Assembly (NCBI GenBank): GCA_034226945.1
Contig: CP120456.1
Coordinates: forward strand, 1,054,001-1,118,000
Source: Picochlorum sp. SENEW3
Lineage: Eukaryota
Direction: 5' to 3'
Length of the DNA: 64,000 bases
A program made the position numbers and the translations under genes. Of this stretch, positions 3-27,951 are shown piece after piece. Under the pieces are notes generated by a model. It was not told where the DNA came from and made no database searches. It saw nothing but the letters and a program-made list of their open reading frames with translations. Each line of letters begins with the position of its first letter. Positions within the stretch are counted from its first letter, which is position 1.

Positions 3-899
3 CATATAAAAGAATGGGTAAAGGATGGCTCGCAGATCTCGAGTGGGGTGATGCAGGACCTGATGAAACACTCCCCATACCTGTGCAAATTGCTACAGAC
101 AGTGAGCCACTCACAGGGGCACGTCCGAGTTCCCCCCGAGTGGAAACCCCTGCTGACAGAATTGTTTACAAGAATAAAGGATGGCACTACATTTCCTAGC
201 GGGTATAGCATGGAGAGGGAGCTTGGGAGTGGTGTTGAGGAGGACCAGGAGAACCAGGTGCCTGTACTGGATGGGTCATACCTGCAAACGGGCATACTGA
301 CTGGCCTTCCTCGCCTTCGGCGAAAACCACACTACGCGACCGACAAAAGTAGAGAGGATGAGAAGAAAGAGGGGTCGGATAAGTGCGACCATGCGTTCTA
401 CAAGCCAGGTGACAGAACAGGAGGGGTGTTCACCATCCTGTGTGAGCATGGGTTTGTATATGCCTCGTTCATCATCAAAGAAGCAGAGGGGAGGAACGAA
501 CCGTTTACATTCATGACATGTTATCTTAAAAAGGCTCCAGAGTACGTGATCTACGACAATGCATGCAATTTGCAGGACTATTGCTTGAGCAGAGCTCCCC
601 TGTTCTTCATGCACACCAAATTCTTCGTGGATGCGTTCCATTGGGTCAACCATAAGGCGTGCAGCCTTGGATATAGTATCAAAGCACACGAAGACTCGTG
701 GCTCAAGCTCGTCAACACCCAAGTAGCTGAGCAGAACAATGCAGCCCTGAAGAACCTAAAGTCCATGATGTCCAGGATGTCTCAGAAGTCGTTCATGACG
801 CTCCTCAAGTCGTTCATGTGCTATCGGAACTTTCGAAAACTAGAAAAGCTGAATGCGGAGGAGGAGAGGAGGCGGAGACGGAACGGGCTCCATTCCTGA
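3..899 (+). CDS. KDZ (Kyakuja-Dileera-Zisupton) transposase, C-terminal catalytic part; runs off the left window edge
   Basis: Motifs GGVFTILCEHG, YVIYDNAC, FFVDAFHWVNHKAC and NTQVAEQNN; closely similar to the C-terminus of 8984..12139. Confidence 0.85.
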   Translation, partial: HIKEWVKDGSQISSGVMQDLMKHSPYLCKLLQTVSHSQGHVRVPPEWKPLLTELFTRIKDGTTFPSGYSMERELGSGVEEDQENQVPVLDGSYLQTGILTGLPRLRRKPHYATDKSREDEKKEGSDKCDHAFYKPGDRTGGVFTILCEHGFVYASFIIKEAEGRNEPFTFMTCYLKKAPEYVIYDNACNLQDYCLSRAPLFFMHTKFFVDAFHWVNHKACSLGYSIKAHEDSWLKLVNTQVAEQNNAALKNLKSMMSRMSQKSFMTLLKSFMCYRNFRKLEKLNAEEERRRRRNGLHS

Positions 900-958
900 G
901 GGCAAGTATGCTGCCCAGTGCATGAGCTCATGGGGGGTTGCCATGCTGGCCTGCTCTC

Positions 959-2257
959 TCATGCCCCCGAGGAGCAAGAGCCCGCTTTCTCGACAACATA
1001 ATGCCCACGAGGATATTCAATCTGGTTTGCTTGCCCCGCTCTCGTGAGATCGCGGAAAAGGTGCAGGAGACGGTCCAGCCTCTCCCTGGTACTCTTGCCT
1101 GCACAGTGCTTCTCTCGAAATGCCTCCACCACCATGCTCGCATCAACCATGGGCACAAAGCTGTATTCCTGATTTGGACGGCCTTCGTCAGATACAATGC
1201 CTTTGCTTCGAAGCGTTTGTATGACCTCTGGGAGCAGTTTGGAGATCAGGACGGCTTTGCTCACAGAAAATTTGCACTGGGATGTCTTTGTGAAATTCCC
1301 AAAGTTAGAAATCTTCTTATTGACCGTGCTCTGTAATAATTCACTCAATTCATGCTGCAAAACGTAATATCCAGGAGAAATCCGCCGCTTGTGCTTATCC
1401 AAGAGATGTTGCCCCCCTGTCTGTACAGAGTATACATGGATCACATGCTCAAACACTCTCTGTTCGCCATCTAGTGCTCTTTCGAAGCCGCTCGGCGTTC
1501 CTTCGATCGAAAGGCTGTCGTACATTGATTCTGAATCCCTTTCGATGGCTTGGGATGGAAGGGGCTCCCTTTCTGGAGGGTTGAGGGCAGGGTCTGCCCC
1601 TTCGCTTGCAGCCTCCAACTCCCCATGCCCACCATACTCTCTCAGTATGTTCATGTACCCTGCTATCTGCGATTGCGCGTCTTGGCACTTACTCACCATG
1701 TTGGTAAAGTCTCTCAATAATGGAGCAGAGTCTTAAACAACCGTGTCGACTAGCTCCCTCATGTTGCTCAACTTGCCTTGCAACTCGCTCACTGTCCCCT
1801 CCAGCTCACCCACCTTGGTGCCCAAAACTGCACATTCATCCCGTGCATTGGAGGCTTCCCGGCGCCAGTGGGTGTAATCCACGTAGAGAGACATGATAAG
1901 ACCATGCACCTGGTCATCGACCTTTACTCTGGAGCTCAATTCCCCCTTTTCCAGCAATGGGTACCTTTGGGCAGGCTCCTCGAAGCGCTTTTTGAAAAGT
2001 TTGCCAACCGGTCCGCGCGGCTTGTTCGACGCTTTGGATTTTTCTAATAAATTTGCATTGTTTTCGGCGATGTCACTGTCATATCCGCTGCAATTTGCTG
2101 AAGAAATCTCGCCCTCCGGGAGGAGCGCTCCTCCAAATGGGCTAGCCCATTTGAAACATCCAAGTCGTTTGCGGCTCGCTTGGTACGTCGAGGCATGTTG
2201 CGTCCTTACTATTCTTTTACTGTATTTATAAATTACAACGGGATCCACCACGTCCAA
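959..2257 (-). pseudogene. KDZ partner gene, copy 1 (coiled coil plus conserved C-terminal domain), with one in-frame TAA at 1733-1735
   Basis: ORFs 1733..2257 and 959..1717 are in the same frame and together align with 12125..13393 (KLFKKRFEEPAQRYPLLEKG vs KVFKSREEEPPRKYPRLENG; RRISPGYYVLQHEL vs RRISNGFCVLQYDL; PNQEYSFVP vs PNQEFCFIP). Confidence 0.75.
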
Positions 2258-2794
2258 TTAGATCCACTACAGGCCGAACCAAGTCGCATTCAGTCACAGG
2301 ACATGCCCCGAGGCGACTTTACTCTTGCTATGCAGTGAAGTCCATTTTACCGCCGCTCAAATTTAAGATTTTCAAATTTTATGTATGCTCCGTGCAATAG
2401 CAAGAGCATATGATACACACATACATATATATAAGCCCCCTAACTTTTCTTATTTTTATACAAGCAGGGTTCCCACACACTTACAGAAAGGATGGTGGCC
2501 TCCTTAAATCCCAAATTTTCCTGAGGGGCGTATTTTATTATTTCGACGACGCCATCGAAACGAGGGTAAGAAAATATGTCTATTGAAACAAAAATGGGGA
2601 AATTTGGTGCGATATTCGAAAAGTTATGGGGCCCTGTGTAAAATGGCTTGTGTGAAAATTTTGAGAAGTCAGGTCGACCGCCCATGGTACTAATTAAGGA
2701 ACTTTTGGTGTCGATCACAAGGCACCAGATCTTCCACAGTAGCCTCAATTCACTGCTGTTACCTGGATAATTTTTATACTTTACACGTTTATTG

Positions 2795-5700
2795 TCATTC
2801 GATATCGATACTGTCCGCTGCTGCGAAGGTGGAACCTCGGGTTGGGAAGAAGGCAAGCATTTTGTCCATTTCTTTCTTGTGGCCGTCCTCCACAAGCTTG
2901 TAGTGGGGCCATTCTCCCTCCCAACCATCTTTTGACATTTGAAAACTAGAAACTTGGCAGACGATATCGTCGATCGGCACGCTGAACACACGTTCGTCAT
3001 GCCTCCACAGCCTCTCTCCTGTGAACTCCTTCACCATGTACACAGTGGTTCCATGGTAATCCATTTTTCTGTCTCATATATCCCGCAAATCGCGTATCGT
3101 TCCACTTCATCTGGATTCCGGGGACTGAATACGCGGACAAATTCATACACCACCCCAACATGGTGAGCCTCAGAATCCTTGTCCCTCAGCAAGACAAAGT
3201 GTGACCGCCTCTTCGTATCACGCCTGTCATAGAATGTTTTCACACAACAGCCTTTGCCATCTACCAAGACGTTGCAAGAAAAATGACTGTACAATTTGAT
3301 ATCTCTCTGCGGCTCCCTCGGTCTCTCGTCCTGGTGCTTTGTGTGAAACTCTCTGATGAGGTTCAACTTCTTCTTCTCGATGGACTCCCTCAGCTTATCC
3401 CTCTGCTGCTTCGATGCATCTCTAGCTTCGATGCATTTCGTCGTACTCCGCTCTACTCCTTTCCCTTGAAGAGCATACGTGGTGCTTGGATGGGCGTCGT
3501 ACATGGTGCCCGCAGCCTTTCGGTGTTGCTTCGGGGCATACACTGGGATGGCACTCTGGTCGGCTGACCCAATCTTGTGCTTGGCTTTCTCCAATGCCGA
3601 TCTGATAAGATACCGTTTTGCTAATGTTGCCTCAGGCGTATTAATACAACTCGTCGAGGAGACGGCCCGCATAGCCCGTTCAACCCACAGCTCTGACAAC
3701 TGGTGCAGTGGGCCCACGAAGGCCTCCTGGTGATGCAGGAGGCAGTTGGCTGTATGGAGGTTGGGCGTCAGCAATTCGTATGCCTTCTCTTCCTGACATA
3801 TCCTTGAGAACTGGTGTAGATGCCAGAGGGCTTGAGATGGCTCGAGCCGGGCGGCTTCAGCGTGGCTCAGGTGATGCATGACAAACTGCCTCAAATGTGC
3901 CCAAGCTTCCATGGCCTTGGGTGTGAGCACAGAAACACCGGTCACCTCCTCGTTGAACAGGGCACATGAATGTACTTCTACAAAAACTTTGACTTCTTCG
4001 CAAATCCAAGAGTAGCAGTGCTCTAATGGCGAGTATGGACGATTGAACGAGTTGTTCAGAGTAATTCCTCTCTCCAATTTCTTGACGGTCTTCTTGCTGT
4101 AGACTCTCATACTCCTGCTATCGGGATCACTGGTTTTCTTGTTGCCGTGGCCATCCCACAAGTATTTGATAAAGTTTTTCGTTATGCCTAAGAGAATCAG
4201 ATGGTATAGAGGAGCTGGTATCCCGTGCTTGACGTGCAACGTAGGCACGGCATGAAACACTTTTGCATAGTCATGAATCCCAAGCCGATCCTGCCATTCT
4301 TGCGTGCTCGATCCGTCGTATATGCCATGGGGCATCACAGTTTTCATAATATTCAATATATCTTCCAGGTCAGCGTGTCCAATCACGGACTGCTGCTGAA
4401 TTGCATCATCGTCACAGCGGGACAACTGGAACTCTTCCTTGGTGATTCCATTGATATGTGTGACAGGATCCTCCTCCTCGTAGCCTGTGAGTAGTCTTCT
4501 CTTGTATGATTTGCCGTTTCTGCTAGTTATGGCTTCTGAGGCCCGCTGCCAGCAAAAGTAGCACCCTTTGATGGCGTTCCCCGGAGCACACATGTGGATT
4601 TTTCTCTGGCCTTAGCATCTGCATGAATGAATCCCAGTATGGGTCGATGAACTCCAGAATGTCTCACCACATGACCATCTTCGTCCACTCCATCATATTG
4701 ATATTCCATAGGAGATGAGCGGAGGCGCTCAAACTCTTCACCAATAAAACATAAGAAGGGGTTGAGGTTTTTGGGTTCTTTTGGGCCTGGGATAATTCCC
4801 AATAATCTGGTGTTGCAGCTGAGATATCGGCCTTCAGGGACCATATCTTCACACTTTAATACAATCAGAGTACAAGAATGTGCTTTCCTTCCAAAAGGCT
4901 GGGATCCATCCACGCCGATCGACCAGATACTAGTCGTGTCGCCGCCTGCTGTGCTTTCCCTCTCCTTGATCCATTTGAACCACTCGGATGTGTACACCGT
5001 GTTTCCTGCGCGACCGCTTTCGATGCTTCTGTTTCTTGATTCTCGAAATTTGCGCGAAGCGAACAGACTCTGCATACAGTCTCGGACCCCAAAGTAATAA
5101 AAGTGCTGCATGGGTCTTGGGCTCCCACCCCTGTCTGCCGTGAACCTCTTCCTACCACACCCTGCTCCACATTCTTCACCCATGTCCCTATCTTTGAACG
5201 GGACGACATTATTGTAGATGTATCCGCAGGGACACTTATGGTATTCGACAGCCTGAAGGTCTGGAACATCCATGGCCTTCCTCAGAAGGTGGATGGATGG
5301 TGGAATGATCATCCTGTCACGGTTGCTCCTCCCCATCCGAACTACGCTCAAGATATCCTGCATGAGCTCTTTTGATACAGCATGCTTTAGTTCTATTTCG
5401 AGGAGCGCAGATGTGAGCTGAAGCAAAGTGCAGGGTGCCTCGTCTTCCTCGTCTTCATCTTCTTGTGGCTGATCCAGCCCATCACCACGTTCCTTACCCA
5501 ACATTGCCATTAGAAAGGTTTGGAAATGCGACCCCTGAGTGCACCGAAAGCGTTCACCAGGTGCATTCTCAACATTTGGCTCATGCTCATCACTCGAAGC
5601 GTCGCTGTCCTCAAGGTCCTGCAGGAAGATAGCTTTCACTCTTCAGAACAACAAGAACCAGAATCAGGAAGCATGACATGTGTCTCCTCACCTCGGTGCA

Positions 5701-6209
5701 CACGCTGCCCTCATCGGATGATTCCACTGCTTCATCAGAATCTTCACAGGAGCGAATGGTTAGAACTTCGTCTCGGTCATAAGGGAGGAGAGTAGTGGAC
5801 ACATGTGGATCTAGTTGGACTATGGCATCATCTTCAAGACTCCTTGGGTGGCCCTCCCCTTTCTTCTCCACACCAAACCTCGCTGCAATATGTGGATGTT
5901 TGTTACGCACGTGATCAAGCACTTTTCTCCTGTCTACATCTCCGGTGACGTCCATGAACAGCATATTTTCGAAGCACAGTGGCTTCCCAGAATATCCACA
6001 CGTCTCCCGTATGGACAGTATACCCTGCAATGTCTCTGCTCGCTTTCTGCATGCAACGAGTCTACCATGGGTCCATATGGGGCTTTGAGACGAAGACACG
6101 CTTGGTAAAAGTCATTCCATAGCTCTGTTATTTTCTTGCGTGCTACCCTCCTCCGTTTTGACCTTTGAGATCCTTGCTCGGGGTTTCGTTGCGTTTCAAC
6201 ACCGTCCAT
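2795..6209 (-). pseudogene. TNP2-like (Transposase_21) EnSpm transposase, frameshifted
   Basis: Motifs GVDGSQPF, LLGIIPGPKEPKNLNPFL, HADAKA, GCYFC, PLYHLILLGITK, PNLH and LWVER, spread over ORFs 5934..6209, 5611..6099, 4527..5639, 3031..4593 and 2795..3064. Confidence 0.8.
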
Positions 6210-6409
6210 TGTGGTATATCATAAATGTATATACTATATTACGATTTGTAATCGTGAGAGTAAAATTTAGAGCATATGAGCCCCTCGTCCGTCGCAATTG
6301 TTCGCAAGCCAAAAATTTGAAATTCAAAATCTGACTTTCAATTGTCTATCAATTGCACGCTGACAGTCAGTCTTTGCAGTCGTATAATGCACATTGTGTT
6401 CGAAAACTT

Positions 6410-7633
6410 ATGCCTAGAGTACGAATAAAGCATAAATCCGGGGAAGGGCCGTGCTTGGAACTCCAGGCCACCGAAGCAGGGTTGACTGACGATGAACTCT
6501 ATGAGCAGACAACTGCATTCAGAGAGCGAGAGGGCATTAGAAATGATATCATTATAGAGCATTTTGGAGTACGAGTTAGCCCACATTGTCTGAAACCCGA
6601 CGTCACACATCTTTTACACTGGTGCGAGGCAGACCCTCCTGGTGAAGTTGCCAACTCTTCTCCCGTAGATATTGACGAGAGTAGCGAGATTTCAATCGAT
6701 GACAACTCGGAGTCTCTGTTTGTTGAGGACAAGCATATACAGAAGCACGCCCGCGAGGCCTGCATGAAGTACTGGGCCAGGGCTCCTGTCAATGGTGACT
6801 TTGAACAATGCCAAGCATACATGCCACAGAAAAAAGGCATGCCCATAGCGCATGAACTCCTTTTTGAAGTATGCAAAGAAAAAGTCATGCTAGAATGTGG
6901 AGAACTGGCCAAGGTTTCGGCATCATACACAGGGGATAAACTCATGGCATACCTGAAGCCAAATCACCGGAATAATCACAACAGACATGTCAGAGACGGT
7001 GTCCGAAAAAACATGGATGCAGATCGTCACTGGTACCTTCAATTTGGGAGATATCTTATCGATTGCATTGGAGAGTATCTAGATGGACTGAACCATGCGG
7101 CAGAAGGCGACAAGAGGTTTTCCACCCAAGAGAACTTGCAGCATCTGAGACCCTTCGTGTTACAAAAGCTTCCTGCATGGTATTCTCGGGACAAGTATTC
7201 CTTCATCTTTACAGGGGCCACGAAAAATTCTGGAAATGAGATAAATTCGCTCATCGTCGACGATCTGCACAAAGTCAAAGAAGAACATCCTGAATTCGAC
7301 GGGAAGGCTAAAGCTCTCATGTCTGAACAAATACACAAGCAAGCACTGGACAGTGTCAAACATGTCCAGGAAAAGTACAATGAGCTAAAGCGATCAATGG
7401 AAAAGAAAGACAAATTATACGAGGATGCGAAGACAGAAAGGGATATCCTCAAGAAACAGATGGCCGAACTCCAGAAGGAGGTGGAGCAACTGAAGAGCAG
7501 GCGTCCAGGGGCAAAGCGTGGTGTGAAGCAGCGACGAACGCAGGATTACGGCAACGAATACGCTAAAACATACATCACAGGGACATCCAGGCGACGGAGG
7601 CCTCTCGAGGATGCACAAGACAAAGAGAATTGA
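6410..7633 (+). CDS. Second gene of the CACTA element, unknown function, with C-terminal coiled coil and basic tail
   Basis: Intact ~407 aa ORF from ATG 6410, inside the TIRs and divergent from the transposase; a decayed copy lies at ~54980-55490. Confidence 0.65.
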   Translation: MPRVRIKHKSGEGPCLELQATEAGLTDDELYEQTTAFREREGIRNDIIIEHFGVRVSPHCLKPDVTHLLHWCEADPPGEVANSSPVDIDESSEISIDDNSESLFVEDKHIQKHAREACMKYWARAPVNGDFEQCQAYMPQKKGMPIAHELLFEVCKEKVMLECGELAKVSASYTGDKLMAYLKPNHRNNHNRHVRDGVRKNMDADRHWYLQFGRYLIDCIGEYLDGLNHAAEGDKRFSTQENLQHLRPFVLQKLPAWYSRDKYSFIFTGATKNSGNEINSLIVDDLHKVKEEHPEFDGKAKALMSEQIHKQALDSVKHVQEKYNELKRSMEKKDKLYEDAKTERDILKKQMAELQKEVEQLKSRRPGAKRGVKQRRTQDYGNEYAKTYITGTSRRRRPLEDAQDKEN

Positions 7634-8983
7634 CCCACATCATGGCACCCTGGAGATGCACAAGTGAGCCGGGCGGTTGGGTTGGACGGGTATAGTTTTT
7701 TCCAAGCAAATATTTAGCACTGCCCATACAGCCTCAGAATGATACAATATCAATAAATGAACAATTTACTCTCATGTAAGTTCCAAATTCGTAGCAGAGC
7801 GGCTCGCTCGCAGCGTGACCAACGACCTTCCATCACTAACGACCACCCTTGTATATGTGCCTGCAGGTATAGAGTCCCTCCAATCACGTCGCCAAACAAT
7901 TAATAAAGGTAAGAACTGACAAGTATGTGTGGTGCAGGTGTGAATAGACGTGGCATGGAGAGGACTCGCCGTCTGGCAACAGACGGTTAACGGTTTTTCC
8001 CCAATGGTCGCCCCAGTGCCTACAGTGGCACAACAAGGGGTGATCATTGGTGGAAAAGCAATGAATCAATCGAATTGTAAAGTATCGTGTAAAAAAGAAT
8101 TAAAAAATCGAGCAGCCCCGGAGGGGGCGAGCAACGATCTGTCGTAATTAGATATATTAAATACAATCCGGCTGCGAAAATTTGGGGCAAATCCGCTGCA
8201 GGCACTTAAAGAGACCCAAATGATCAAGACTCGATCCTCCGTACTGCGACCGTTTCATACATCCCCACCGCTCTAAAAAGTTGCATTTATACTTAAAAGT
8301 TGATATTGTGTCCTGGGAACGGCGTTGTTGCGCCGAGAGCACACCTTTTAGACGCTCAGTTTCAAGCGCATCTGCACATCCCTCCGAGAGGCGAACTCCC
8401 GATTGCGCGAACCATTTGGCGTCAAATTTTCACGAGATACTCTATTTGTAATACTGATCAATAATATATACGAGCGGGAATATATAACGCCCTGTGCGCG
8501 ACGAAATCAGCGACCCAAAATCAAGGGGACTGCCATCCTTTCTGTAAGTGACAGGCCTAGGCCGGATGTCATAACTGCCGGTCGCAGTGAGCCCCTTCCC
8601 GTTGTAAATCATCCCAAGTCCCCTGAAAAATTATGCTCACCGCAACCCCACTGGGGGCATTCATATTATTTATAAGGATGTAATTGAAGGTTTTGGAGGC
8701 CATAATGGTTGTGTCCACCCGACATGGGGGTGTGCGGGGACCTTGTCAGAAAGATGCCCTGTTCAAAAGACGTCTGAGACAGTGCGAGAGGTGCGTTTCG
8801 GGGCGTTTCGCCGGTTGGTATCGAACTTAAAACTCTTATGGAGTATTTTGAGCCGCTATATGATCGATGAGATGGCGGCATCAGGCGGAACGAGTGCCCC
8901 AATTCTCAAACCTGGTGTTTTGAACCAGTTTTACCTAGCCTTTCTACCCATTCTGCAGTGAGGCCGAGGCCATCCATGGGTAC

Positions 8984-11900
8984 ATGATGAAAATATCAGA
9001 CCATATGCGCGATATGGTGTGCGACTATGGGGCAACCTGCGCTTTGGTGGCGTGGTTGGGGCCTCAGAGGAGCATCTATGTCTCCAGAACAGGCAACATT
9101 GGCTACTCAGATGCCCCCGAAATCTGGGCATCTGTGCAGCAAACCTTTATGAATTTGCTTCACAAGTCCAAAGGTATTAAGGACATAGCCTTGCCCAGGA
9201 TTCCTGTGGAGATATGCCTGTTTCAGGGGAGTTATCCCAACAGTCGTGTTGTCCAGCAAGGCTGGCACAACAAGACCAGATGCATTCAAAATGCATTCGA
9301 GAAGGTGCAATCCTTGACGAATCTTCCTGTGTACATTTCTATATCTGGATACAAGGGGGTGCTGCTGAAGAATGCCGCCGATCTGCGCGAATTATCAGTC
9401 CTAGATGAGGTGTTTCATTTTCACAACATGGGCAAGAGGTTTCCTCCTTTGGATATTGCACTTGCGCAGCAGCCCAAGGGCATGAAACGGCGAAAATTGT
9501 CAGAGAGTAGGGTGATGACGAACTATTCCAGGAAAAGGACGAAGACCTGGGATGGAGAGCCGCTCTTGAGGCCTGGTTCTCTAGAGTGGTATGAGGACAT
9601 GCTGAGACAGGTCAAATACCCACCTGTGCAGCCACTCTGCAGACAGGAGCACATGGGGCATCGAGAATCCTTATCATGGGCGTGTATAGACTCGAGGAAA
9701 CACGGGCATGTGGGCGAATCTCTGAATCATATGATGTTAGTGAGGGTTGACTGCCCAGATGCCAAAGAGAGAAAATTTGAATGCAACTGTGATACTTACA
9801 CTTCTGGCTACGACGAGGAGGGCGACTGTGTGCACGTTCAGTACTTGGAAAAGCACTATGATACCTTAAAGTCTGGCACATTTGGGGCGGCGCATGACGT
9901 GGTACAGGTAACTAGGAGGGATGGGACCTTTGTGGCATACTACTATGATGGGGGCTTTCTCAAAGTGGACCAGGCTGGTTGGCGGTGCTCCTTGTGTTCT
10001 CGAGACAATCGCAGCTGTCGTCATGTTCAGAAAATATGTTCTATGAACCAAGAAGGTGCCGTGGCGCAGAATGCACGAGGCAATGGCAGCCAGGAGGTGT
10101 ATGTGATAGACAGCAGGCCTGGCTCAGTAGAGTGGTATGTGGAGAACCACCCAGAAGAGGCACGAATAGATATGCCGATGCATGGGAGTGTGATTGAAAG
10201 TATTCAGAGGATATATCACGCAGGTTTGAGCGCCTGGGAGCATCCTAGCGGCGAACGATACTTTGAAGGGCTTGCAGAACTGAAGCCTCCAAAGCCATCT
10301 AGACAATGCTGCTGCCAGCAGGACTATGCGGACGCCAGCGGGCTCGTACTGGACTGCCAAGACGCCTTAGTATTCCTGAATCCCACGCGATATGATGCAG
10401 TGCACAAGAGATCCGTATACAAGTGGGTATGCCCCAACAGAAGGGCAGAGTGTGAAGTGCCATACATGGGGGTTCAGGATGGCCTGTGGAGAGCTTCGAA
10501 CACGATGATTATAGAGCTTCAAATGATGCAAGATGCCTATAATGCATCTGTTCTAAAGGGTGGTCAGTCTTTGGAAAGCCAGTGCGCGGATTTATGCAGC
10601 AGATACAGTGGGAAGCAGTTGTTTGGTGAGGATGGGGTACCTGGGGCCCCACTGGAAAAGCCCTTTATGGATGCCACGCTCTTTCGTAATGCTGCAATCC
10701 AGTTCGGTAAATGCACATCGTGGGCAATGAAATACGACGATGGGGATAAACTGGTGGAGCTAGAGAACCAGATGATGTGCCCTTGCTGCAAAGACTCCCC
10801 AAAGGTGCTGATCATGGATGGGACAAGCATGAGCATCAGGTCCAGAGCTTGCTTCGCCGACAGCATCACGGCCACCGATGAGAACGGCAAGAAAGTTCCA
10901 AAGCTTCGGGGCAAAAGGGATAGGTCGTTCCTCAATGTAGACAAGGCCAGAAGAACAAGGAAAGCTAGGCTTTCCCTTGCTAGGCTGTTGCTGCAGTTCC
11001 AGAAGCGGATCAGGAAGGCTCGCGACGCTGCGGGTCTGGAGGGATTTTGGAGGGATAAAGGACGACATTTAAGACAACTTGGAACCCTTTGGAATGTGGA
11101 TTCCTTCGTGCAATGGGCGTTTGCTAAAGCCAAAGCCTGGGACTCCTCAGAGAGGCTTACCAGCCTGGCAGACTTCATCTTTTGCCTCGCCTCCGAGTCC
11201 CCCGCTGTATCCTACATCACGTTGAGATGTTGTATTTTACTCAAGGAATGTTTGGAGAGCCGCACGGTCCCGAGTGGTGTGCTGTCGCAGCTGAGCAAGG
11301 AGGCCCCACCCCTGTTCAAACTGCTGTTGACCATCAAGCGGGCTGGGGACTCTTGCGTACACATTCCGGCGGAATGGGGCAATCTTCTGAATGAATTAGT
11401 GACCCGAATCGAGAGTACAAATGCTTTCCATGATAGATACACGATGGAAAGCGAGCTTGGGAGTGGTGTCCCACCTCAGGGACCATCAATTCTGGATGGG
11501 TCATACCTACATTCTGGCATCCTGACGGGCCTGCAGCGCGTCCGATCCAAGCCCCAGTATCAGGCAGACTCGATGAAAGAAGAAGAGAGCGTTGACGGGA
11601 GGAAAGATGCGTGTGAGCACGCGTTCTGCAAGCCTGGGGACAGGACAGGAGGGGTGTTCACCATCCTGTGTGAGCATGGTTTTGTGTATGCATCCTTCAT
11701 CATCAAAGAAGCAGAAGGGAGGAAAGAACCATTTGCATTCATGACACAGTATCTCAGAAAAGCCCCGGAATACGTCATTTACGACAATGCATGCAACTTG
11801 CAGGACTATTGCTTGAGCAGGGCACCATTGTTCTTCATGCACACCAAATTCTTCGTGGATGGCTTCCATTGGAGGAACCACAAAGCATGCAGTCTTGGAT

Positions 11901-12139
11901 ATATGATTAAAGGGTACGAAGACAAGTGGTTACAGGCGTTAAACACGCAAGTTGCAGAGCAGAACAACTCATCCTTGAAGAACCTGAAGGCCATGATGAG
12001 CAGAATGTCACAGAAATCGTTCATGACGCTCCTGAAGTCATTCATGTGTCATTGGAATTACCACAAGCTAAAACGAATGAATATCGAGCAGAAAAGAAAG
12101 CAGAGGAGGAACGGTTGGCCGTCCTCAGGTGCCATGTGA
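8984..12139 (+). CDS. Full-length KDZ transposase with N-terminal SWIM-like and CxC zinc-binding motifs
   Basis: Uninterrupted 1051 aa ORF; CNC..CVH, CSLC..CRH, CPCC..VLIMDGTS, GGVFTILCEHG, YDNAC, DGFHWRNHKAC, NTQVAEQNN. Confidence 0.9.
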   Translation: MMKISDHMRDMVCDYGATCALVAWLGPQRSIYVSRTGNIGYSDAPEIWASVQQTFMNLLHKSKGIKDIALPRIPVEICLFQGSYPNSRVVQQGWHNKTRCIQNAFEKVQSLTNLPVYISISGYKGVLLKNAADLRELSVLDEVFHFHNMGKRFPPLDIALAQQPKGMKRRKLSESRVMTNYSRKRTKTWDGEPLLRPGSLEWYEDMLRQVKYPPVQPLCRQEHMGHRESLSWACIDSRKHGHVGESLNHMMLVRVDCPDAKERKFECNCDTYTSGYDEEGDCVHVQYLEKHYDTLKSGTFGAAHDVVQVTRRDGTFVAYYYDGGFLKVDQAGWRCSLCSRDNRSCRHVQKICSMNQEGAVAQNARGNGSQEVYVIDSRPGSVEWYVENHPEEARIDMPMHGSVIESIQRIYHAGLSAWEHPSGERYFEGLAELKPPKPSRQCCCQQDYADASGLVLDCQDALVFLNPTRYDAVHKRSVYKWVCPNRRAECEVPYMGVQDGLWRASNTMIIELQMMQDAYNASVLKGGQSLESQCADLCSRYSGKQLFGEDGVPGAPLEKPFMDATLFRNAAIQFGKCTSWAMKYDDGDKLVELENQMMCPCCKDSPKVLIMDGTSMSIRSRACFADSITATDENGKKVPKLRGKRDRSFLNVDKARRTRKARLSLARLLLQFQKRIRKARDAAGLEGFWRDKGRHLRQLGTLWNVDSFVQWAFAKAKAWDSSERLTSLADFIFCLASESPAVSYITLRCCILLKECLESRTVPSGVLSQLSKEAPPLFKLLLTIKRAGDSCVHIPAEWGNLLNELVTRIESTNAFHDRYTMESELGSGVPPQGPSILDGSYLHSGILTGLQRVRSKPQYQADSMKEEESVDGRKDACEHAFCKPGDRTGGVFTILCEHGFVYASFIIKEAEGRKEPFAFMTQYLRKAPEYVIYDNACNLQDYCLSRAPLFFMHTKFFVDGFHWRNHKACSLGYMIKGYEDKWLQALNTQVAEQNNSSLKNLKAMMSRMSQKSFMTLLKSFMCHWNYHKLKRMNIEQKRKQRRNGWPSSGAM

Positions 12140-13393
12140 AGGTTCTGGCAGGCAGGACACAGCATCAGTTCTCTCAACAGACCACTCTTGGCCTCCATCC
12201 CCTGACACGGCCTCGCCCTGGCCTTCAACAACCTCCTCACCACAGCAATAGCGTCGATAGAACTTGTCAAGCATCGACTGCAGGAGGAGGAGCCTTGCTG
12301 TGGTCTGCTGCTGCCTGCAGTTGTGCTGGGCCAACTTGGTCAGGACATGCTCAACATCTGCATACGGAATGAAACAGAATTCCTGGTTCGGCTTATTCCT
12401 CATGATAATTTTTTTTGATGTAAGTTCATCGACGGCCACATCTGTGAGTTTCGATACCAGTACTGCCTTTGGCAACACAAACTTGTTTGTCTTCTGTGTA
12501 TGGTTCCCAAAATTCTTCACAGCAGGGTCACCAAACGCTTTCCTCAGACACCTTTGCAGATCGTATTGCAGTACACAGAATCCATTCGAGATTCGACGTC
12601 CATATTTGTCCATCACTGCGTGTTCGCCCACCTTGATGTTGAAGAGATGGATGGTTTGGTCCACTGTGGCCCTGTCCCCATCACGTTGCTGCAACATGAA
12701 CTCTAACCCTTTCGTGCTGACAGCATGAGCTTGCTCTGCCCCCACTACTGACGTCCCGTAGAAACTGCATATCTCAATGTGGTCGTGCAAACCCCCCGAT
12801 GCTTCGTCCATGGCTGGCTCATCCACTCCAACTGCAGGGGTGTGGTCAACCGCTTCTGCCTCCTCTGCAACAAAGGATCCAAGCCCAAGGATGCACTGTT
12901 GCAGGTACCGGGTCTTCTCTTGCCATGCATCGATTGCATGTTGCGATGTGATGACCAAGGGCGAAGCCAGCTCGACCACCTTTTGGGCATGGGCCCTGTT
13001 CCTGGACAACTCACCCTCTAGCTGTGCTACTTGAGCCTGCAGGGAGGCACACCTTGACCTCTCTTCTTCGTGCATTCCCTCCATCTTTCTGCTCTTCTCA
13101 TACCACACCTTGACGTCACTATACAGGGCAGTGATGAGCTCCAGAAACCCTTCAGGAAGGCTATTTTTGGCCAAAATTTGGCCATTTTCCAGTCTTGGGT
13201 ACTTCCTGGGAGGCTCCTCTTCCCGAGATTTGAAAACTTTTCTCGGCGGTGCCGCCTTGTTTGGGCAATATGTATCAATATTCACTATATCTACATCGAT
13301 TTCTTGGGTATGATTCGAATACGCGCGATCGGTGCCGCCGATCTCACGCGCAGGCACATCGTCCGCACTCGCATTCGGGGCAAAAGTTGGCAT
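12125..13393 (-). CDS. KDZ partner gene, copy 2 (intact, 422 aa), convergent with the transposase and overlapping its 3' end by 15 bp
   Basis: Homologous to 959..2257 and in the same position relative to a KDZ transposase. Confidence 0.8.
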   Translation of the reverse strand: MPTFAPNASADDVPAREIGGTDRAYSNHTQEIDVDIVNIDTYCPNKAAPPRKVFKSREEEPPRKYPRLENGQILAKNSLPEGFLELITALYSDVKVWYEKSRKMEGMHEEERSRCASLQAQVAQLEGELSRNRAHAQKVVELASPLVITSQHAIDAWQEKTRYLQQCILGLGSFVAEEAEAVDHTPAVGVDEPAMDEASGGLHDHIEICSFYGTSVVGAEQAHAVSTKGLEFMLQQRDGDRATVDQTIHLFNIKVGEHAVMDKYGRRISNGFCVLQYDLQRCLRKAFGDPAVKNFGNHTQKTNKFVLPKAVLVSKLTDVAVDELTSKKIIMRNKPNQEFCFIPYADVEHVLTKLAQHNCRQQQTTARLLLLQSMLDKFYRRYCCGEEVVEGQGEAVSGDGGQEWSVERTDAVSCLPEPSHGT

Positions 13394-13923
13394 GAAATCC
13401 CTTGTTTTTCGCCTCTTTGTGGCTCAAAATCCCTCCAACTTTGATATTTTATATATTAGAAGCGGCAGTATTGCGCGAATTGCACACAAAAGCGCAATAT
13501 GCTCGAGAAACAAGGACAATCGCACGTGCGTTTGAACACTATTCAAACTCTCCTGGCATTGTCAGCCAAACGATTTAAAATGTATTCAAACATACACTGT
13601 TGCAATATCATGTACAACAAGTATATACACACTACATACAGTAGAAATTTTAATTTTGCCAGATAATAATTTTGTCGCTGAGAAATCCTTCCAAATTGAG
13701 CATTTCCGTCGCTGTTAAATTTTGTCGCCAAGGTATCCAGAGGCCCACTGGTGCGTCGAAATTTTGACAGAGAGACGTCTCTACAGCAAGAATATTGCAG
13801 TTCTTGGTCTCAGGAACTGTTTGATGCTGCAAGAAGGCCTTTTCCACTGATTCAAACTTGAATTGGGCCTCGCTTTGGTGTGAGCTGTTGAACTTTAATT
13901 TTGACGCTGGCAGATTTCGATTA

Positions 13924-14209
13924 CAGGCAAATTATTTTTTTTCGCGATGTATCTGAGCTTTTCGCGAAGTAAACGCTACCTATCACCCCTTCTGAGAGAC
14001 CAATCGCGAAGAATAGCTGAAAGTAGTCCCCTTTTTCACTGAGTGCTTCACATGATATTCCTATCGAAGGCTCATTTTGACCGAGGGTACAAGCAAAGTT
14101 ACCACTTTGAGACGAGCCTCTCGCGAACAATACATATCAGTTCTCATTGAAAATTTCTTCTCAATCAGCTCGCGAAATCGACATCTCGCGAAAAAAAATA
14201 ATTTGCCTG
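13924..14209. mobile_element. Tc1/mariner-type MITE
   Basis: TIR CAGGCAAATTATTTTTTTT(T)CGCGA at both ends, each flanked by TA; several internal TCGCGA motifs. Confidence 0.7.
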
Positions 14210-14609
14210 TATTTCTGAGCAGTCGAAAGGATATTAAATATTGGCGGTTGGCCTCAATTTTCCGCCATTAAAAAAATTTTTACTGTACTATCCCTCCCTT
14301 TTTTCTATGTTTTTATTACATCAGGGGCCTCCTCTTCTACGTGGATGATGACTATACCCTTAAATGAACGAGACCCATCAATCGACCGGATGAGTGGGAA
14401 CTGGCGTGAGAGAGGTCCATTGCGCTCTCTGGGATGTCTTGCAAAGTGGATGAAGCATCCTTTATATCGAAATACATTTACATTTTATAAGCATGTAATA
14501 GCATAAAATGCGTGATGTAAGCGAGAAGAACGATATCGTACTGGAAAAAAATAGCGCTATTGGTGTCCTCATTTCTAGCACCTTTTCTTTGGTGGAAATA
14601 TGTGGGTGA

Positions 14610-15850
14610 TGTACCTGCACCTGCTCCGGCCTTGGGCGCGCCATGCTGTATCGAATGAGTTTGTGGTACTTTGAGATGTTCCACTGTGTCAGAAACAGGC
14701 GGACCAGGGCGATGAATGGCCGCTGGCCCATCCTGGACAGGACTGGCTTGAACCTCTTCATGGCAGCATTGATTGCTCGCACGCCTCCGTGTTCTGCGTC
14801 ATGCTGGCAATGTCCTTCATCTCACTGTATAATTTAATGGAAAAACTCCTGGCACAGGCGACGTGATTCACCCAATGGAAGGCATCCACAACGAACAGAG
14901 TAAATTTGAAAAAGTCTGGTGCCCTGTTGAGGCAGTAATCCATCAATGCGCACGCGAAATCGTACACCACGACCCTCGGAGCTTTCTTGAGATAGCAGGT
15001 AAGAAATGTGAAAGGTTCATCGCGGCCCTCGGCATCTTTAATGATGAATGAAGCATATGCAACGCCGTGCTGGCACATGCAGGTGAACACTCCACCTGTA
15101 CTCTTACCTGGCTTGTGGAACGCATGCTTACAGGACGCTTTGTCATTCTCACTCACTTTTGAGTCTTCTTTCTGTCCATCGCATGCGTATGGGGGACGGA
15201 AACGCAGTCGAGGGAGGCCGCAACAGACGCCATTCCTGAGGAAATCCCCATTCACTGCAGAGGCATCACATGGGTGTGGGATGTCATCTCCCAGCTCGCG
15301 CTCGCCACAGTTGATCTCGGAAATCCATCTTCTTCTTTTTATAATCTCACGTAGAAAAGAAACCCACCCAGTGGGGATCACAGCTCCCTCTTGGCCCGGC
15401 GCTTGCACAATCCTTGGCAAATTGAGGATGGGGCCCACTTTGTCCATGACTGCCTGTCCCACCACCCTCCCCGCCTCCAGGCAGCCATCAAGGTCTATAG
15501 AAGACTCGTAGGAGAGGTATGACGTGGTTGGGCTATCGCTCCGCAACTCCCGCAGCATGGCTTTGACTGCTTTCCTATCCACCACAGACAGCCGCCCCTC
15601 TCTGCACAATTCTTGCACCCACGCCACAAAGTCGCCGCAATTCCACGTATCGGCGAGACTACGTAGTCTATGGATGCCCAAAAATCCCTGCGGAGTGTCC
15701 TTCGACTCGATCCAAGACTCAAACTCCTGCACAAGCTTGATGACTTCTCGCCTCTGCCCTGCACGTCTCTCTGGTACCTCATTCGTCCCATTGCTGACAT
15801 TGAAAAAGCACCGCTCGACCATCAAATGCAGTCTTTTCTTGTTAATGGTA
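14610..15850 (-). pseudogene. Partial tandem duplicate of the 3' half of KDZ transposase 3
   Basis: Near-identical DNA to ~16613-17860; GGVFTCMCQHG, YDFAC, DAFHWVNHVAC; frameshift near 14775. Confidence 0.85.
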
Positions 15851-16594
15851 CCTTTGCGCACAAAATCGCACCATGCATATACCCTGTATCCTGGGGACTC
15901 GCCATATGCCCTACACCGGAGTTTACCCGAGCTTGCTGCAGACTGGGAATTCAAATGCCAGTTCGAAAAGTCGGGTCGCCACCCAGGCCTCTATCATGCT
16001 AGCAGGGTGCATCCAATAGATTCAAATATATCAATAACCATTAATTGCCACGCAGATTACGTCGCGAGCTCCGGATCGGCCGTGCTCCGCGCAACGACCT
16101 GCTCGAAATTTGAATTTCTTGCCTTGCGCGATCGCGCGCAGGGGATCTCAACAGTCGCGGATATCCCCTAAAATCATCAATTAAATGTGTAAAAAGATAC
16201 CATCGGATGCTTGAGCACATGATGCTGTGCGGTTCGTCGCCGTCCGAACCGTGTCATGTCTCCACAAGAAGGCGAGCCAAGGCGGTCTACACTCGGTCGA
16301 ACGCTCCACTGGCCCACAATCCTGTATATTGAAGTATTGAAGATGCCAATGTGGACGCGAGAGCGGCTCGGGGCGGAGGTCGACAAGGCTGGGTGCCGTT
16401 CCTGCGGTCAAAAAAGCAGGCTTTTAGAGGGTCATGGCGGCATCGAGCCGATCTTCAACCCCGCATTCTGCAACGATTTGGCATCGTTACAACTCAAATA
16501 GTGAATCGGGACGTATTTGACGCATCGAAACGCGCCATGGTACGCTGTAGACGGCGGAAAACCCTGCTGAAACAGCAGGCCACTCGGCAGTCCC

Positions 16595-19500
16595 TCACTG
16601 CTGATCTGGCGCATGTACCTGCACCTGCTCCGGCCTTGGGCGCGCCATGCTGTATCGAATGAGTTTATGGTACTTTGAGATGTTCCATTGTGTCAGAAAC
16701 AGGCGTAACAGGGCGATGAATGGCCGCTGGCCCATCCTGGAAAGAACCGGCTTGAACCTCTTCATGGCAGCATTGATTTGTTCGCACGCCTCTGTGTTCT
16801 GCGTCATGCTGGCAATGTCCTTCATCTCACTGTATAATTTAATGGAAAAACTCCTGGCACAGGCGACGTGATTCACCCAATGGAAGGCATCCACAACGAA
16901 CAGAGTAAATTTGAAAAAGTCTGGTGCCCTGTTGAGGCAGTAATCCATCAATGCGCACGCGAAATCGTACACCACGACCCTCGGAAGCTTTCTTGAGATA
17001 GCAGGTGAGAAATGTGAAAGGTTCATCGCGGCCCTCGGCATTTTTGATGATGAATGAAGCATATGCAACGCCGTGCTGGCACATGCACGTAAACACTCCA
17101 CCTGTCCTCTTCCCTGGCTTGTGAAACGCATGCTTACAGGATGCTTTGTCCTTCTCACTCACTTTTGAGTCTTCTTTTTGTCCATCGCATGCGTATGGGG
17201 GACGGAAACGCAGCCGAGGGAGGCCGCAACAGACGCCATTCCTGAGGAAATCCCCATTCACTGCAGAGGCCTCACATGGGTGAGGAATGTCATCTCCCAG
17301 CTCGCGCTCGCCACAGTTGATCTCGGAAATCCATCTGCTTCTTTCTATGATCTCACGTAGAAAAGAAACCCACCCAATGGGGATCACAGCTCCCTCTTGG
17401 CCCGGCGCTTGCACAATCCTTAGCAAATTCTTGACGATGGGGCCCACTTTGTCCATGACGGCCTGTCCCACCACCCTCCCCGCCTCCAGGCAGCCATCAA
17501 GGTCTATAGAAGACTCGTAGGAGAGGTATGACGTGGTTGGACTATCGCTCCGCAACTCCCGCAGCATGGCTTTGACTGCTTTCCTATCCACCACAGACAG
17601 CCGCCCCTCTCTGCACGATTCGTGCACCCACGCCACAAAGTCGCCCAAATTCCACGTATCAGCGAGACTACGAACTCTATGGATGCCCACAAATCCCTGT
17701 GGAGTGTCCTTCGACTCGATCCAAGACTCAAAGTCCTGCACAAGCTTGATGACTTCTCGCCTCTGCCCTGCACGTCTCTCTGGGACCTCATTCGTCCCAT
17801 TGCTGACATTGAAAAAGCACCGCTCGACCATCAAATGCGGTCTTTTCTTAGTAATAGTACCTCTGCGCGCCGTAAAGGACTCGGCGCTGCAAAGAGAGGC
17901 GCTGATGGACATGGAGGTGCCATCCATGATGATCACATCTGGGCTGTCCTGGCAAATGGGACACATCATGGCATTTGGTGGCATTGCAGCCCCACATCCT
18001 TCTCGCAAGCTCCTCTCAATGCCCTTTATATCAAATTGAAGACAGCTAGCAACTCCATATACTGCTTTTCGGAACGCATTGGCCACTAGGAAACTCTCAG
18101 TGGGATTGGTGCGAGAAACCATGTCATACATTTCACTGATGCTGTCGCGCTGTGCAGTGAGCGAATGTCCTCTAAATCCGACAAAATCCCTTGCACATCG
18201 TACTAAAAGATCCAGTTCTACCGCCACTGTCTTGGAGGCACGCCACAGGCCGTCCTCCAAGCCTGTATAGTGCAGGGTGCATTCTGGTGCACCCCTTTGG
18301 CACTTCAACACCATGCAGGGAAGCGTCCTGGCGCAGTGCGGCGGTCTCATATACACCGTCACAGGATCTGTCTCTTCAAATCCTCTCCTTGTATAAGGAA
18401 GGCCGCATTCGCACGTGATCGAGGCGGGCATGGGTGGCTGAAGAGGCCCAAGTGGGGTGCCTTCCTTGTCTCTTGAAAAGCCAAACAGCAGCCGCTCCAT
18501 CACCTCCCGCTTCAGCGCATCGCTATAAGGATACTCTATCTTTAATGATTTTGATGTATCCGTTATCCATGCGTTCGTGGGCAGCACGTCTGCCTCGTCA
18601 GAGGAAGAAGAGCAAGGATCAAGTGAACCCTCACTCTCTTCCTCTCCAGGCTTCACATCCAGGTGCAATGCCTCCCTCACCCGAGCGACATGCCGGCAAT
18701 AATAAGCTTTATCTGAGTCGCATCGCAGACCCCTATCGCCTTGCATCCTGATGAAGCAGCCGTCCACGTAGTAGCCAGCTGTGGAGGAGTTATTTTTCTT
18801 GACCGCCACCACCTCGCCTTCCTTTGAAAACACCATACTGCGCAAACGTTCCGAGTTCACACGGGTATACAACGTGTGAAAACATTCTTTGGGCTCCAGA
18901 AAATTGCGAAATACGGCACAAGAGCACCGCAAATGGCCCATGGGATCAAGCCCAGATTCCACCTCAACCAGCAGCAAGTTGTGGTGGACCCTCATACTGC
19001 CTCCAGGCCCATGGCATCAAGCATCCGCGAACGCCCACTTATAATACATGTCTGACTTGATGAAAGCAGCTACTCCGGTGCCGTTGGGATCCTTGATCGC
19101 GTGACAATACCACGGCAGCGAACCAGGTTCATGCACAAACTCCATGGCCTCCCATTCATCCCCTGGAGGCTGGCAATCCCTTGTCTTGGGCGTCTTCTTT
19201 CTCCTGTTCGGACCAGACGACCAATTTGATGCTCGCTTAAGTCTGCAACTGCTGTCAACATGCAAAGAGGGCGGCAGAAACGAGAAGTTGGGCTTGATTT
19301 TTGGCATGCACCCATCATTGGACAAGGATTGGTAGTACTGTATCACCTTCTCCAGCATATTTTGCATCTTCGTATCTTTCTGTGGATGACACAGCGTTAA
19401 ATATTTATTGTTAGCGTGAACTAGAGCGACCACAGGCAAGGCGTGCGACTCTGCAAGCCTCTTCTGCAGCAGGTAGAAAGCAGCCTTCTTGTTGTGATAT

Positions 19501-19736
19501 CCTTTGCTATTTCCCCTCTCGTCCTGGCTCCCTCGTCTATATATATTCTTCACTTTAAGACAGTCAGCCCAGTGGGGTCTAGATCCCAGGATTTCAGCGA
19601 CGTAGGATCTCAGACCTTGCTTCAAAAGCCTCAAGGGTATGAGCCTAAAGGCAAGCCCCAAGCTCCTGCTGGAAACCATGTACATCTTGCCATTGGTCCC
19701 CAGCCACACCACCACGCCGTACAAGAAGAATGACAT
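16595..19736 (-). pseudogene. KDZ transposase 3 (divergent subfamily), with an in-frame TGA at 19017 and a +1 frameshift near 16985
   Basis: 19017..19736 is in frame with 16839..18995; its N-terminus aligns with the 8984 ORF (VVWLG/VAWLG, GYHNK/GWHNK, PGSLPWY/PGSLEWY); MMCPICQDSPDVIIMDGTS. Confidence 0.85.
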
Positions 19737-24283: not shown

Positions 24284-24287
24284 TCAC

Positions 24288-27200: not shown

Positions 27201-27951
27201 GCCAGAGCAACAGACTTGGTACAGGGACGACTACCACTGGACCATCGGCCCAAAAGCCCACCCGATGAAGAAGTATACAGTGAAGATGGGCACTCGCTTG
27301 TTATCGATGGAAGGACAGCCAGAGAGGGCCGATGCCTATTACAGATGGCTGTATGCCCTCTGCGGAGCCACACAGGCTCCGGGCAGCCCCCTGATCCACC
27401 AACACCTCTGGAAGCTCCCGATGGACAATAGGTGGAAGGAGCCGTTCTGGCATGCGTCCATGGGCGGCTTCATCCGCTCGTCGGGGTCGAAGCCATGCGC
27501 ATGTGGCATGTGCGAGACACCTGACATCCTTCACCACTTCAAGCACTGCCCTGTGGCAGCAGCCGTGTACGGTCAGCTGTCGGGCGAGTCCATCCATGCG
27601 GAAAAAGTGCCGTTCCTCGTATGGACAGGAACACCACCCCAGCATGTGCCAAAAAATATATGGCTCTTCATCTGCGTCAGCGCGGTGTATGCCATTGACA
27701 GAGGCAGACGCTACATGTACAAATTGAAGTACCATACAGAGGGCCCAGTCCCCCAAACAGATACCATTGTCAGCAAAGGAAAGACCATCGCCGTTCAGAC
27801 CTTCTGGAACCTCCTCCATCTCCACGCCAAAAAGATGCCTCAAGGCAAGCCAGAGCACGCCACCCTCCCAATTATAGCCTGGAACACCAACACCAACAGC
27901 TGGTTCCCCAAACCACCACCAGGGGTGCAACTTGTAGGAAGCATCCATTAG
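24288..27951 (+). pseudogene. L1/Tx1-like LINE ORF2: APE endonuclease, reverse transcriptase and C-terminal zinc knuckle; two frameshifts
   Basis: Endonuclease motifs LLQETH, GDWN, LDRFY, SDH; RT motifs APGEDG, YRPITLLNVDY, DFQKAYD, GIRQGCPASP, YADD; PPQEGGLG; CACGMC..HHFKHC. Confidence 0.92.

Follow-up and report, generated by a model that had tools for sequence, protein, structure and literature searches.

Transposons of the KDZ (Kyakuja, Dileera, Zisupton) superfamily occur widely among fungi, algae and animals. Other DNA transposons encode two proteins: in PIF/Harbinger elements (transposase plus a Myb/MADF protein) and in CACTA/En-Spm elements (TnpD plus TnpA) the second protein binds element DNA, and MuDR combines MURA with MURB. 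Harbinger requires both of its proteins, according to the available text of two accounts (10.64898/2026.05.26.728016, PMC5543537). As for KDZ elements, the accessible part of one report describes fungal copies that bear TET/JBP dioxygenase genes (PMC12730594), and that of another describes, in Cryptococcus, KDZ1 to KDZ3 together with a Zisupton-type element, KDZx1 (6.4 kb, with two open reading frames (ORFs), one of them of unknown function), in a genus where KDZ transposons are mobile (bioRxiv 10.1101/2024.08.15.608186). Here we analyse 64,000 nucleotides (nt) of the alga Picochlorum sp. SENEW3 (contig CP120456.1, positions 1,054,001 to 1,118,000), a stretch of about 47% G+C that is rich in transposons and is called the window below. 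It carries two KDZ elements, A and B, in each of which the transposase gene faces a second, convergent gene, termed here the partner, or ORF2. This partner represents an undescribed ORF2 family in algal KDZ elements, for which we present evidence on element boundaries, co-divergence, selection and probable fold. A preliminary description of the same DNA had left room for a match to an already described KDZ ORF2 family, and we found none: our literature search, which covered subscription journals incompletely, returned no described Zisupton or KDZ ORF2 and no account of Picochlorum transposons. In the literature examined, nothing was found on proteins other than the transposase that KDZ elements need.

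The algal elements resemble the fungal carriers of TET/JBP genes, as far as the available text on these goes, in that a second gene travels with a KDZ transposase inside one transposon. They differ in the nature of this gene. Pfam was searched with all ORFs of the window and with 16 members of the partner family, and at E<=10 no match was obtained for the partner in 16 of 16 cases (HMMER filters drop weak matches); this includes 2-oxoglutarate/Fe(II) (2OG-Fe(II)) and TET families, and the partner is instead modelled as a small helix-rich alpha/beta fold. The absence of a 2OG-Fe(II) motif, remarked on in the preliminary description, thus extends to Pfam families of any kind. The Cryptococcus elements, to judge from the accessible part of their description, likewise have extra ORFs without recognisable domains, and KDZx1 has the same two-gene layout at a similar size. 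No sequence relation to them was detected, in that all traceable profile matches of the partner are Picochlorum or unnamed metagenome proteins, the fungal ORFs not having been compared directly. The algal ORF2 is moreover conserved and co-diverges with its transposase across lineages, which the available text does not report for Cryptococcus KDZ ORFs. With the two-protein transposons the algal elements share a transposase and a smaller second protein within terminal repeats. The transposase superfamily is different, however, and the partner has no Myb, SANT or MADF match in Pfam; nor is it similar to the second ORF of a CACTA-like element lying in the same window (E 3.5).

Both transposases match the Pfam KDZ family PF18758 (34.7 bits, E 1.9e-8 for A; 35.3 bits for B; gathering score 26.6), as do 7 of 8 relatives of transposase B. 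They are 67% identical across 289 amino acids (aa) and 77% identical in DNA (267-886 against 11492-12114). Transposase A, cut by the window start, is 100% identical to residues 789-1086 of an annotated 1086-aa protein (P0102). In the Zisupton clade, SWIM and CxC zinc modules stand upstream of the KDZ domain; in transposase B the N-terminal third contains a CxCx13CxH (SWIM-like) motif, for which the Pfam SWIM and CxC families gave no match at E<=0.1, and PF18717 is carried only by P0073, a 29% relative of transposase B. Upstream of the transposase B reading frame, the joint of a putative intron is spliced in one contig each of two public runs guessed to be RNA (X3 and X6), and unspliced in a third run (X1). 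A third KDZ family, 28% identical to transposase B, is also present in the window on the minus strand, as a frameshifted full-length copy (16625-19718) and a tandem partial duplicate that is 94% identical to it (14624-15858).

In both A and B the partner lies tail to tail with the transposase. The two coding regions of copy B share 15 nt (12125-12139), whereas those of copy A do not overlap, 59 nt lying between the stop codons (899 and 959). Partners A and B are 27% identical over 409 columns by tblastn (E 1e-34), and the two halves of A match B by BLASTP with E values of 3e-27 and 7e-13. Both contain the blocks F..R.EEP...YP.LE.G, RRIS.G..VLQ..L, NFGN, KAVL.SKL and PNQE..F.P..D. When the six-frame translation was searched by profile without filters, no partner copies beyond these two were found in the 64-kb window. 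Pfam, tblastn and BLASTP, with all the motif blocks recovered, therefore agree with the arrangement first proposed for this locus, namely two KDZ transposases that are each followed by a convergent homolog of one protein. The same proposal took both homologs to be proteins of about 420 aa; this is the case for partner B, but partner A, although clearly homologous, is interrupted by a frameshift and a nonsense codon.

The frameshift of partner A lies near 2119-2125, so that its first 26 codons sit in a different frame from the rest, and the in-frame stop at 1733-1735 replaces a glutamine of P0168, an intact 405-aa relative (from a cluster of 19 members) that is 98% identical to partner A over residues 19-405. 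A public 353-aa model at this locus (P0012, a Picochlorum sp. SENEW3 hypothetical protein) splices past both defects. We rejected its annotated exon 1 as a real exon, the unspliced frame matching both copy B and the intact P0168. Because this match continues upstream of the supposed acceptor, the model is likely an annotation artefact and the locus likely a pseudogene. The comparison thus corrects a probable mis-annotation, in which both defects are masked by splicing.

Element B is a bounded unit with imperfect terminal inverted repeats, extending from 8551/8559 to 14331 (Table 1). A second copy was found on a metagenome contig of 5347 nt (L001), the sole locus obtained from the metagenome scan. 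It is 96.6% identical in DNA to the window copy over 8559-13639 and 14286-14331, its flanks are unrelated, and both of its ORFs are intact, with protein identities to B of 97% (transposase) and 93% (partner). Contigs from four public runs of uncertain kind (X1, X3, X6 and X15; all unstranded) point to the same ends. At the left, X1, X3 and X6 contigs diverge from the window before 8559, the X3/X6 flank differing from that of X1; at the right, X15 and X1 contigs diverge behind 14331, again with differing flanks. The repeats at the two ends share the form AGGCC-(2-4 nt)-ATGTnATAA, and the motif TTATNACAT-N(0-8)-GGCC occurs within the 64 kb solely at the two ends of B, with 0.10 occurrences expected. 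The left repeat of the window copy holds a 6-nt duplication. Since CAC directly precedes AGGCC in the flanks of L001, X1 and X3/X6, and also in the window once the nested CACTA-like element is removed, the true left end may be CACAGGCC.

Positions 13637-14285, which lie between the start codon of partner B and the right end, are absent from L001 and are skipped in three X15 contigs and one X1 contig; they are therefore an insertion that only the window copy has, and no part of the ancestral element. A piece of 288 nt nested in this insertion (13922-14209, with 26-nt perfect inverted repeat flanks) is skipped in one further contig. The ancestral unit would measure about 5.1 kb, of which about 86% is coding, so that the two convergent genes nearly fill the element. 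A run contig of 4398 nt covers 8691-13256. That the partner is encoded by the element, as had been suggested from the sequence, is thus substantiated: it lies between the terminal repeats of a unit, and L001 and the run contigs agree on where this unit ends. Among the traits of the Zisupton clade, terminal inverted repeats are present in B and an 8-bp target-site duplication is not; the window copy, which adjoins element A, is uninformative in this respect. For element A, a local alignment of 2420-2480 with 14280-14335 of B indicates a probable right end.

Table 1. Coordinates of the two KDZ elements, their genes and associated features in the window.
Feature	Position	Strand	Remarks
KDZ transposase A	3..899	+	C-terminal 298 aa; gene truncated by window start
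Partner A, likely pseudogene	959..2196	-	ATG at 2196, stop 959-961; ORF region 959..2257 homologous to partner B
Probable right subterminal and terminal region of element A	2420..2474		local alignment with the right end of B
CACTA-like transposon	2478..8550		6073 nt, separates A from B; 18-nt perfect terminal inverted repeat CACTTACAGAAAGGATGG; 3-nt duplication ACA
Left terminal inverted repeat of B	8551..8574	+	(C)ACAGGCC[TAGGCC]GGATGTCATAA; L001 homology stops here
Putative GT..AG intron, 5' untranslated region of transposase B	8791..8958	+	168 nt; contig joint 8788->8957 (cut +2)
KDZ transposase B	8984..12139	+	intact, 1051 aa
Partner B (ORF2)	12125..13393	-	intact, 422 aa
Partner B residues 245-385, conserved basic alpha/beta C-terminal domain	12239..12661	-	about 140 aa; from the domain model
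Partner B residues 83-179, one long predicted helix	12857..13147	-	about 95 residues; confidence (pLDDT) 71-86
Insertion resembling a miniature inverted-repeat transposable element	13637..14285		649 nt; ends ACAGTA.AAATTTT
Right end of B	14286..14331	+	L001 homology resumes at 14286 and stops at 14331; inverted repeat 14313-14331 (TTATTACATCAGGGGCCTC)

A word-seeded search of 5.8 billion proteins returned 11 relatives of the partner, and an HMMER profile search of 1.84 billion cluster representatives returned 11 proteins at E<=0.001, all of them inside the partner family. Five clades are distinguished: the B-type, P0002 to P0006 (55-58% identical to B), the A-type (P0168), P0019 and P0020, the last two being distant (17-20% identity to partner B in the aligned domain). 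All members with a named source come from Picochlorum (sp. SENEW3, renovo and oklahomense), and the others from metagenomes and run assemblies. A short C-terminal tail, S-x-x-S-G-A or S-G-G, is found in P0012/P0168, P0019, P0020 and P0011, the approximately 40 residues that precede it not being conserved.

Outside the window, linkage was read from contigs of identical size and from the gene numbers of the cluster members listed. Among these members, partner and KDZ proteins share 18 exactly equal contig sizes, on contigs of less than 12 kb. B-type partners are paired in this way with KDZ cluster P0066 (3967, 2382 and 6543 nt). KDZ cluster P0067, which is 78% identical to transposase B, is paired with 7 of the 15 listed partners of the P0002 cluster (2935, 5342, 1520, 3117, 5051, 5128 and 5042 nt), with P0006 (6615 nt) and with one of four in the P0004 cluster (4931 nt). 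Cluster P0069 is paired with two of four partners of the P0005 cluster (5591 and 4031 nt) and one of two of the P0003 cluster (5288 nt), and P0068 with the A-type (4787 and 6226 nt, plus three large contigs). The most distant pair joins one of 15 partners of the P0019 cluster to KDZ cluster P0070, which is 45% identical to transposase B (11690 nt). No shared contig was seen for the P0020 (0 of 3) and P0008 (0 of 2) clusters, whose contigs are too short for both genes. In annotated genomes, a KDZ model stands one or two gene numbers away from five of seven partner models (842/843 and 907/908 in SENEW3; 33435/33436, 33462/33463 and 33404/33406 in P. renovo), and the other two have none among the models listed. 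Finally, one MMETSP transcript label holds both complete ORFs, g.7119 (KDZ, 1086 aa) and g.7120 (partner, 405 aa).

Co-divergence was assessed on nine putative co-located pairs matched by equal contig size, which give 36 non-independent comparisons. Identities range from 47 to 99% for KDZ and from 16 to 98% for the partner, with a Spearman coefficient of 0.97. The two trees are compatible, and terminal branches are about 2 to 6 times longer for the partner, which evolves faster than the transposase. Equal-size contigs, gene numbers, the transcript and this co-divergence together bear out, in at least five lineages, the long co-inheritance of partner and KDZ transposase that the preliminary description had read from the window's two pairs.

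Selection was estimated from the ratio of non-synonymous to synonymous rates (omega, or dN/dS) between window copy B and L001, with small counts for the partner. The transposase has an omega of 0.13 (64.7 synonymous and 32.3 non-synonymous changes), and the partner as a whole 0.56 (14.5 and 28.5). The latter value covers two regimes: the C-terminal domain has an omega of 0.05 (5 synonymous, 1 non-synonymous), the N-terminal region and the linker values of about 1 (3.0/10.0 and 2.5/9.5, synonymous/non-synonymous). The dN/dS check proposed in the preliminary description thus reveals purifying selection on the C-terminal domain, from small counts. An independent sign of constraint is that the partner frame stays open at 405-425 aa across five clades, down to 16-20% identity. 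Taken with the linkage, these data make us highly confident that ORF2 is a selected accessory gene encoded by the element, and not a passenger.

An AlphaFold2 model of the whole partner (mean predicted local distance difference test score (pLDDT) 58.8) is disordered at the N-terminus and in an acidic linker, with a helix at residues 83-179 between these two stretches and a folded domain at the C-terminus. According to this model the helix is probably a coiled coil, and its structural neighbours are coiled coils only (Z up to 6.4). Searches with the whole model were uninformative: Foldseek gave E values of 0.21 or worse, a Ski-like domain ranking fifth, and VIA returned only generic coiled coils. 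The C-terminal domain was therefore folded alone, from a 16-row alignment, and this model is confident (pLDDT 81.3, predicted TM-score (pTM) 0.77); it contains a few short strands besides six helices. The domain is basic in all 16 rows (isoelectric point (pI) 8.4-9.6), the whole protein being acidic in 14 of 15 (pI 5.1-6.5).

Only three of 48,161 chains searched with VIA reach Z>=5 against this domain: the N-domain of baculovirus Orf22 (Z 5.9, root-mean-square deviation (rmsd) 3.7 Å over 95 residues), the DHD of SnoN (Z 5.3, 3.0 Å, 82 residues) and Dachshund (Z 5.2, 3.4 Å, 84 residues). They are followed at Z 4.3-4.9 by Af1502, BCOR PUFD, Bqt4 (4.5), the SMARCB1 winged helix and the APSES domain of Mbp1 (4.3), rank 50 being at 3.2. 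In a second VIA comparison, with 853 PDB chains, SnoN ranked second (Z 5.6), SKI third (5.5) and Dachshund fifth (5.2), with rmsd 3.2-3.6 Å over 83-85 residues. The top Foldseek rows against the PDB were SnoN (E 0.28-0.57), BCOR PUFD, MarR proteins, Dachshund (0.69) and SKI (1.1). Among viral predicted structures (BFVD), the best match was an unnamed Medusavirus protein (E 4.8e-3, probability 0.97), and the top 50 rows included 18 Bro or Bro-N proteins (E 0.013-0.29, TM-score 0.26-0.38) and one KilA-N.

Two families thus come to the fore. The Ski/Sno/Dachshund homology domain provides the best solved neighbours (Z 5.2-5.6, rmsd 3.0-3.6 Å, 82-85 residues), but identity is 8-13%, there is no Pfam Ski_Sno match, and the partner adds two C-terminal helices and the coiled coil; to our knowledge, this family is known from animals. 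The Bro-N/KilA-N/APSES group is represented, besides the BFVD rows, by the N-domains of Mbp1, Bqt4 and Swi6 (Z 3.2-4.5), without a Pfam or PHROGs match of the partner to it. The resemblance to Ski/Sno/Dac-like domains that had been suspected from a sequence pattern is accordingly only weakly sustained: SnoN, SKI and Dachshund are the top-ranked solved neighbours, at scores that are below the noise guide (Foldseek E>=0.28) and are not accompanied by a sequence match. The neighbours are consistently small domains combining a sheet with a helix-turn-helix, which we take to belong to DNA- or chromatin-binding proteins. On the basis of the model, we consider it slightly better than an even bet that the domain is winged-helix-like. 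Sequence-level searches were silent. The partner had no match at E<=10 in a PDB profile search, and no usable feature match in the ESM Atlas (structure TM-score <=0.25); viral contigs scanned with the distant relative P0019 gave no match. One PHROGs family (phrog_21661, unknown function) matched 8 of 16 members with a best E of 7.3e-5; the match covers the last helices in one clade only and is uninformative.

We propose that ORF2 serves the element as an accessory protein, a self-associating helper that binds DNA or chromatin, and we assign to this reading a probability of roughly 0.6. ORF2 would form a dimer through its helix of about 95 residues, and its basic, winged-helix-like C-terminal domain would contact DNA or chromatin. 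The most plausible target would be the transposon's own ends or subterminal DNA, where ORF2 might help or control the assembly of the transposase complex, as the second protein does in CACTA and PIF/Harbinger elements. The specific mechanism, a helper that binds DNA, remains tentative, and we rate it a little below even odds.

Several observations weigh against this proposal. No 8- or 9-mer that might act as a binding site recurs in the subterminal regions of B, and neither Pfam, the PDB nor PHROGs provides a sequence-level family match pointing to DNA binding. Foldseek found no PDB match of the C-terminal domain at E<=0.001 (best 0.28), and all VIA Z scores are <=6.0, below the 7-8 that is the tool's typical best for unmatched models (TM-scores 0.3-0.5); according to the VIA guide, Z under 8 may reflect merely a common arrangement. 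Besides, some DHD proteins work via protein contacts and not via DNA. No target-site duplication of any length was found at the flanks of L001, the sole copy with two clean flanks (its ends being uncertain by about 3 nt). DNA was seen directly for the window's two elements, L001 and the run contigs, the remaining linkage evidence being indirect. Partner A has decayed although its transposase model is intact. No partner homolog accompanies the third KDZ family in the window (tblastn, and the unfiltered six-frame profile search), and none was found among the members listed for KDZ clusters P0071, P0072 and P0073; the partner is therefore tied to one KDZ sub-lineage, and not to all. Lastly, the overall omega of 0.56 and the rapid divergence of the partner also fit a role in host interaction.

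Such a role is the best of the alternatives. ORF2 may be aimed at the host, as an adaptor or scaffold that keeps the element expressed through contacts with chromatin or with silencing proteins, along the lines proposed for fungal KDZ TET/JBP genes. Some of the nearest solved folds would suit it: SnoN/SKI, the SMARCB1 winged helix and BCOR PUFD are all, we presume, members of chromatin or co-repressor complexes. Rapid evolution, at an omega of about 1 outside the C-terminal domain, fits an arms race, and fungal KDZ elements are repeatedly found with epigenetic cargo, as stated in the accessible part of that report (PMC12730594). On the other hand, these fold matches are below significance, the best-conserved part of ORF2 is a basic domain, and no host partner is known. 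We regard this possibility as rather unlikely, at about one third of the weight given to the helper reading.

Alternatively, ORF2 may limit transposition, either as a protein or via antisense or overlapping 3' transcripts. The genes converge in both copies and overlap in B, and overlapping transcripts would fit both the MMETSP contig with the two ORFs and the 4398-nt contig; for Cryptococcus KDZ1, the available text of that study discusses an antisense RNA that covers the KDZ domain (bioRxiv 10.1101/2024.08.15.608186). The gap between the coding regions of copy A argues against such copy-number control, and unstranded contigs cannot show antisense transcription. Moreover, a purely RNA-based control would leave unexplained the amino-acid conservation of the C-terminal domain and the open frames at 16-30% identity. 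We therefore consider this scenario improbable.

Capture of host genes occurs in DNA transposons, and ORF2 could be such a captured gene, a passenger without a role for the element. The authors of the Cryptococcus study, in the part available, liken the extra ORFs of its KDZ elements to cargo (bioRxiv 10.1101/2024.08.15.608186). For the algal gene, though, the profile search of 1.84 billion representatives yielded no host paralog, its 11 proteins all belonging to the family; the partner is linked to KDZ in every clade with long enough contigs, it co-diverges with the transposase, and selection is kept across element copies. This makes a passenger still less probable than copy-number control. 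That the partner would not be a real gene at all, merely a frame left open opposite transposon sequence, we dismiss as very improbable: the element appears in no RNA run on record and part of the gene model annotated for copy A is an artefact, but the overlap with the transposase coding region is just 15 nt, the frame of 405-425 aa is open in five clades, the C-terminal domain has an omega of 0.05 and a confident model (pLDDT 81), and a transcriptome contig holds the complete ORF.

A stronger form of the helper reading can be formulated, in which ORF2 is an obligatory, dimeric second subunit of KDZ transposition that recognises the transposon ends, its C-terminal domain being related, genuinely though very distantly, to the Ski/Sno/Dachshund and Bro-N-type winged-helix domains. 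We judge it unlikely, slightly more so than a host-directed role. If it is true, the KDZ superfamily would have in ORF2 its first defined accessory factor. ORF2 would also be a mobile-element representative of a domain that we otherwise know from animal co-repressors and viral DNA-binding proteins, which would hint at a mobile-element origin or reservoir of this fold. In any case, Picochlorum offers a compact two-gene KDZ element with intact copies, some transcript evidence and a conserved, co-diverging second gene, in a small and tractable genome; it is thus a convenient system in which to find out if a helper is needed for KDZ transposition, and what this helper binds.

The CACTA-like transposon of the window falls within the coordinates of the module formed by the two gene pairs and is not part of it. 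Its assignment is suggested by its CACT ends and 3-nt duplication, which are typical of CACTA elements. Its two ORFs, at 3031-5639 (minus strand) and 6353-7633 (plus strand, 426 aa), have no Pfam match, the 426-aa ORF being unrelated to the partner, and a partial second copy lies at 55006-57108. The element sits exactly at the junction of elements A and B: when it is removed, joining 2467-2477 to 8554-8575, the right end of A and the left end of B touch, without any nucleotides between them. This abutment could mean that one element inserted at the very end of the other, or could reflect a target preference.

Elsewhere in the window, large ORFs at 22904-27951, 30991-35523, 37113-41972 and 47046-49420 resemble by eye, respectively, a retrotransposon of the long interspersed nuclear element (LINE) type, a Helitron-type helicase element, a long terminal repeat (LTR) retrotransposon and a transposase of the Mutator-like element (MULE) type. 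Host-like genes (glycosyltransferase-like and sugar-transporter-like, also by eye) are located at 19740-21070, 57338-58459 and 63019-63963.

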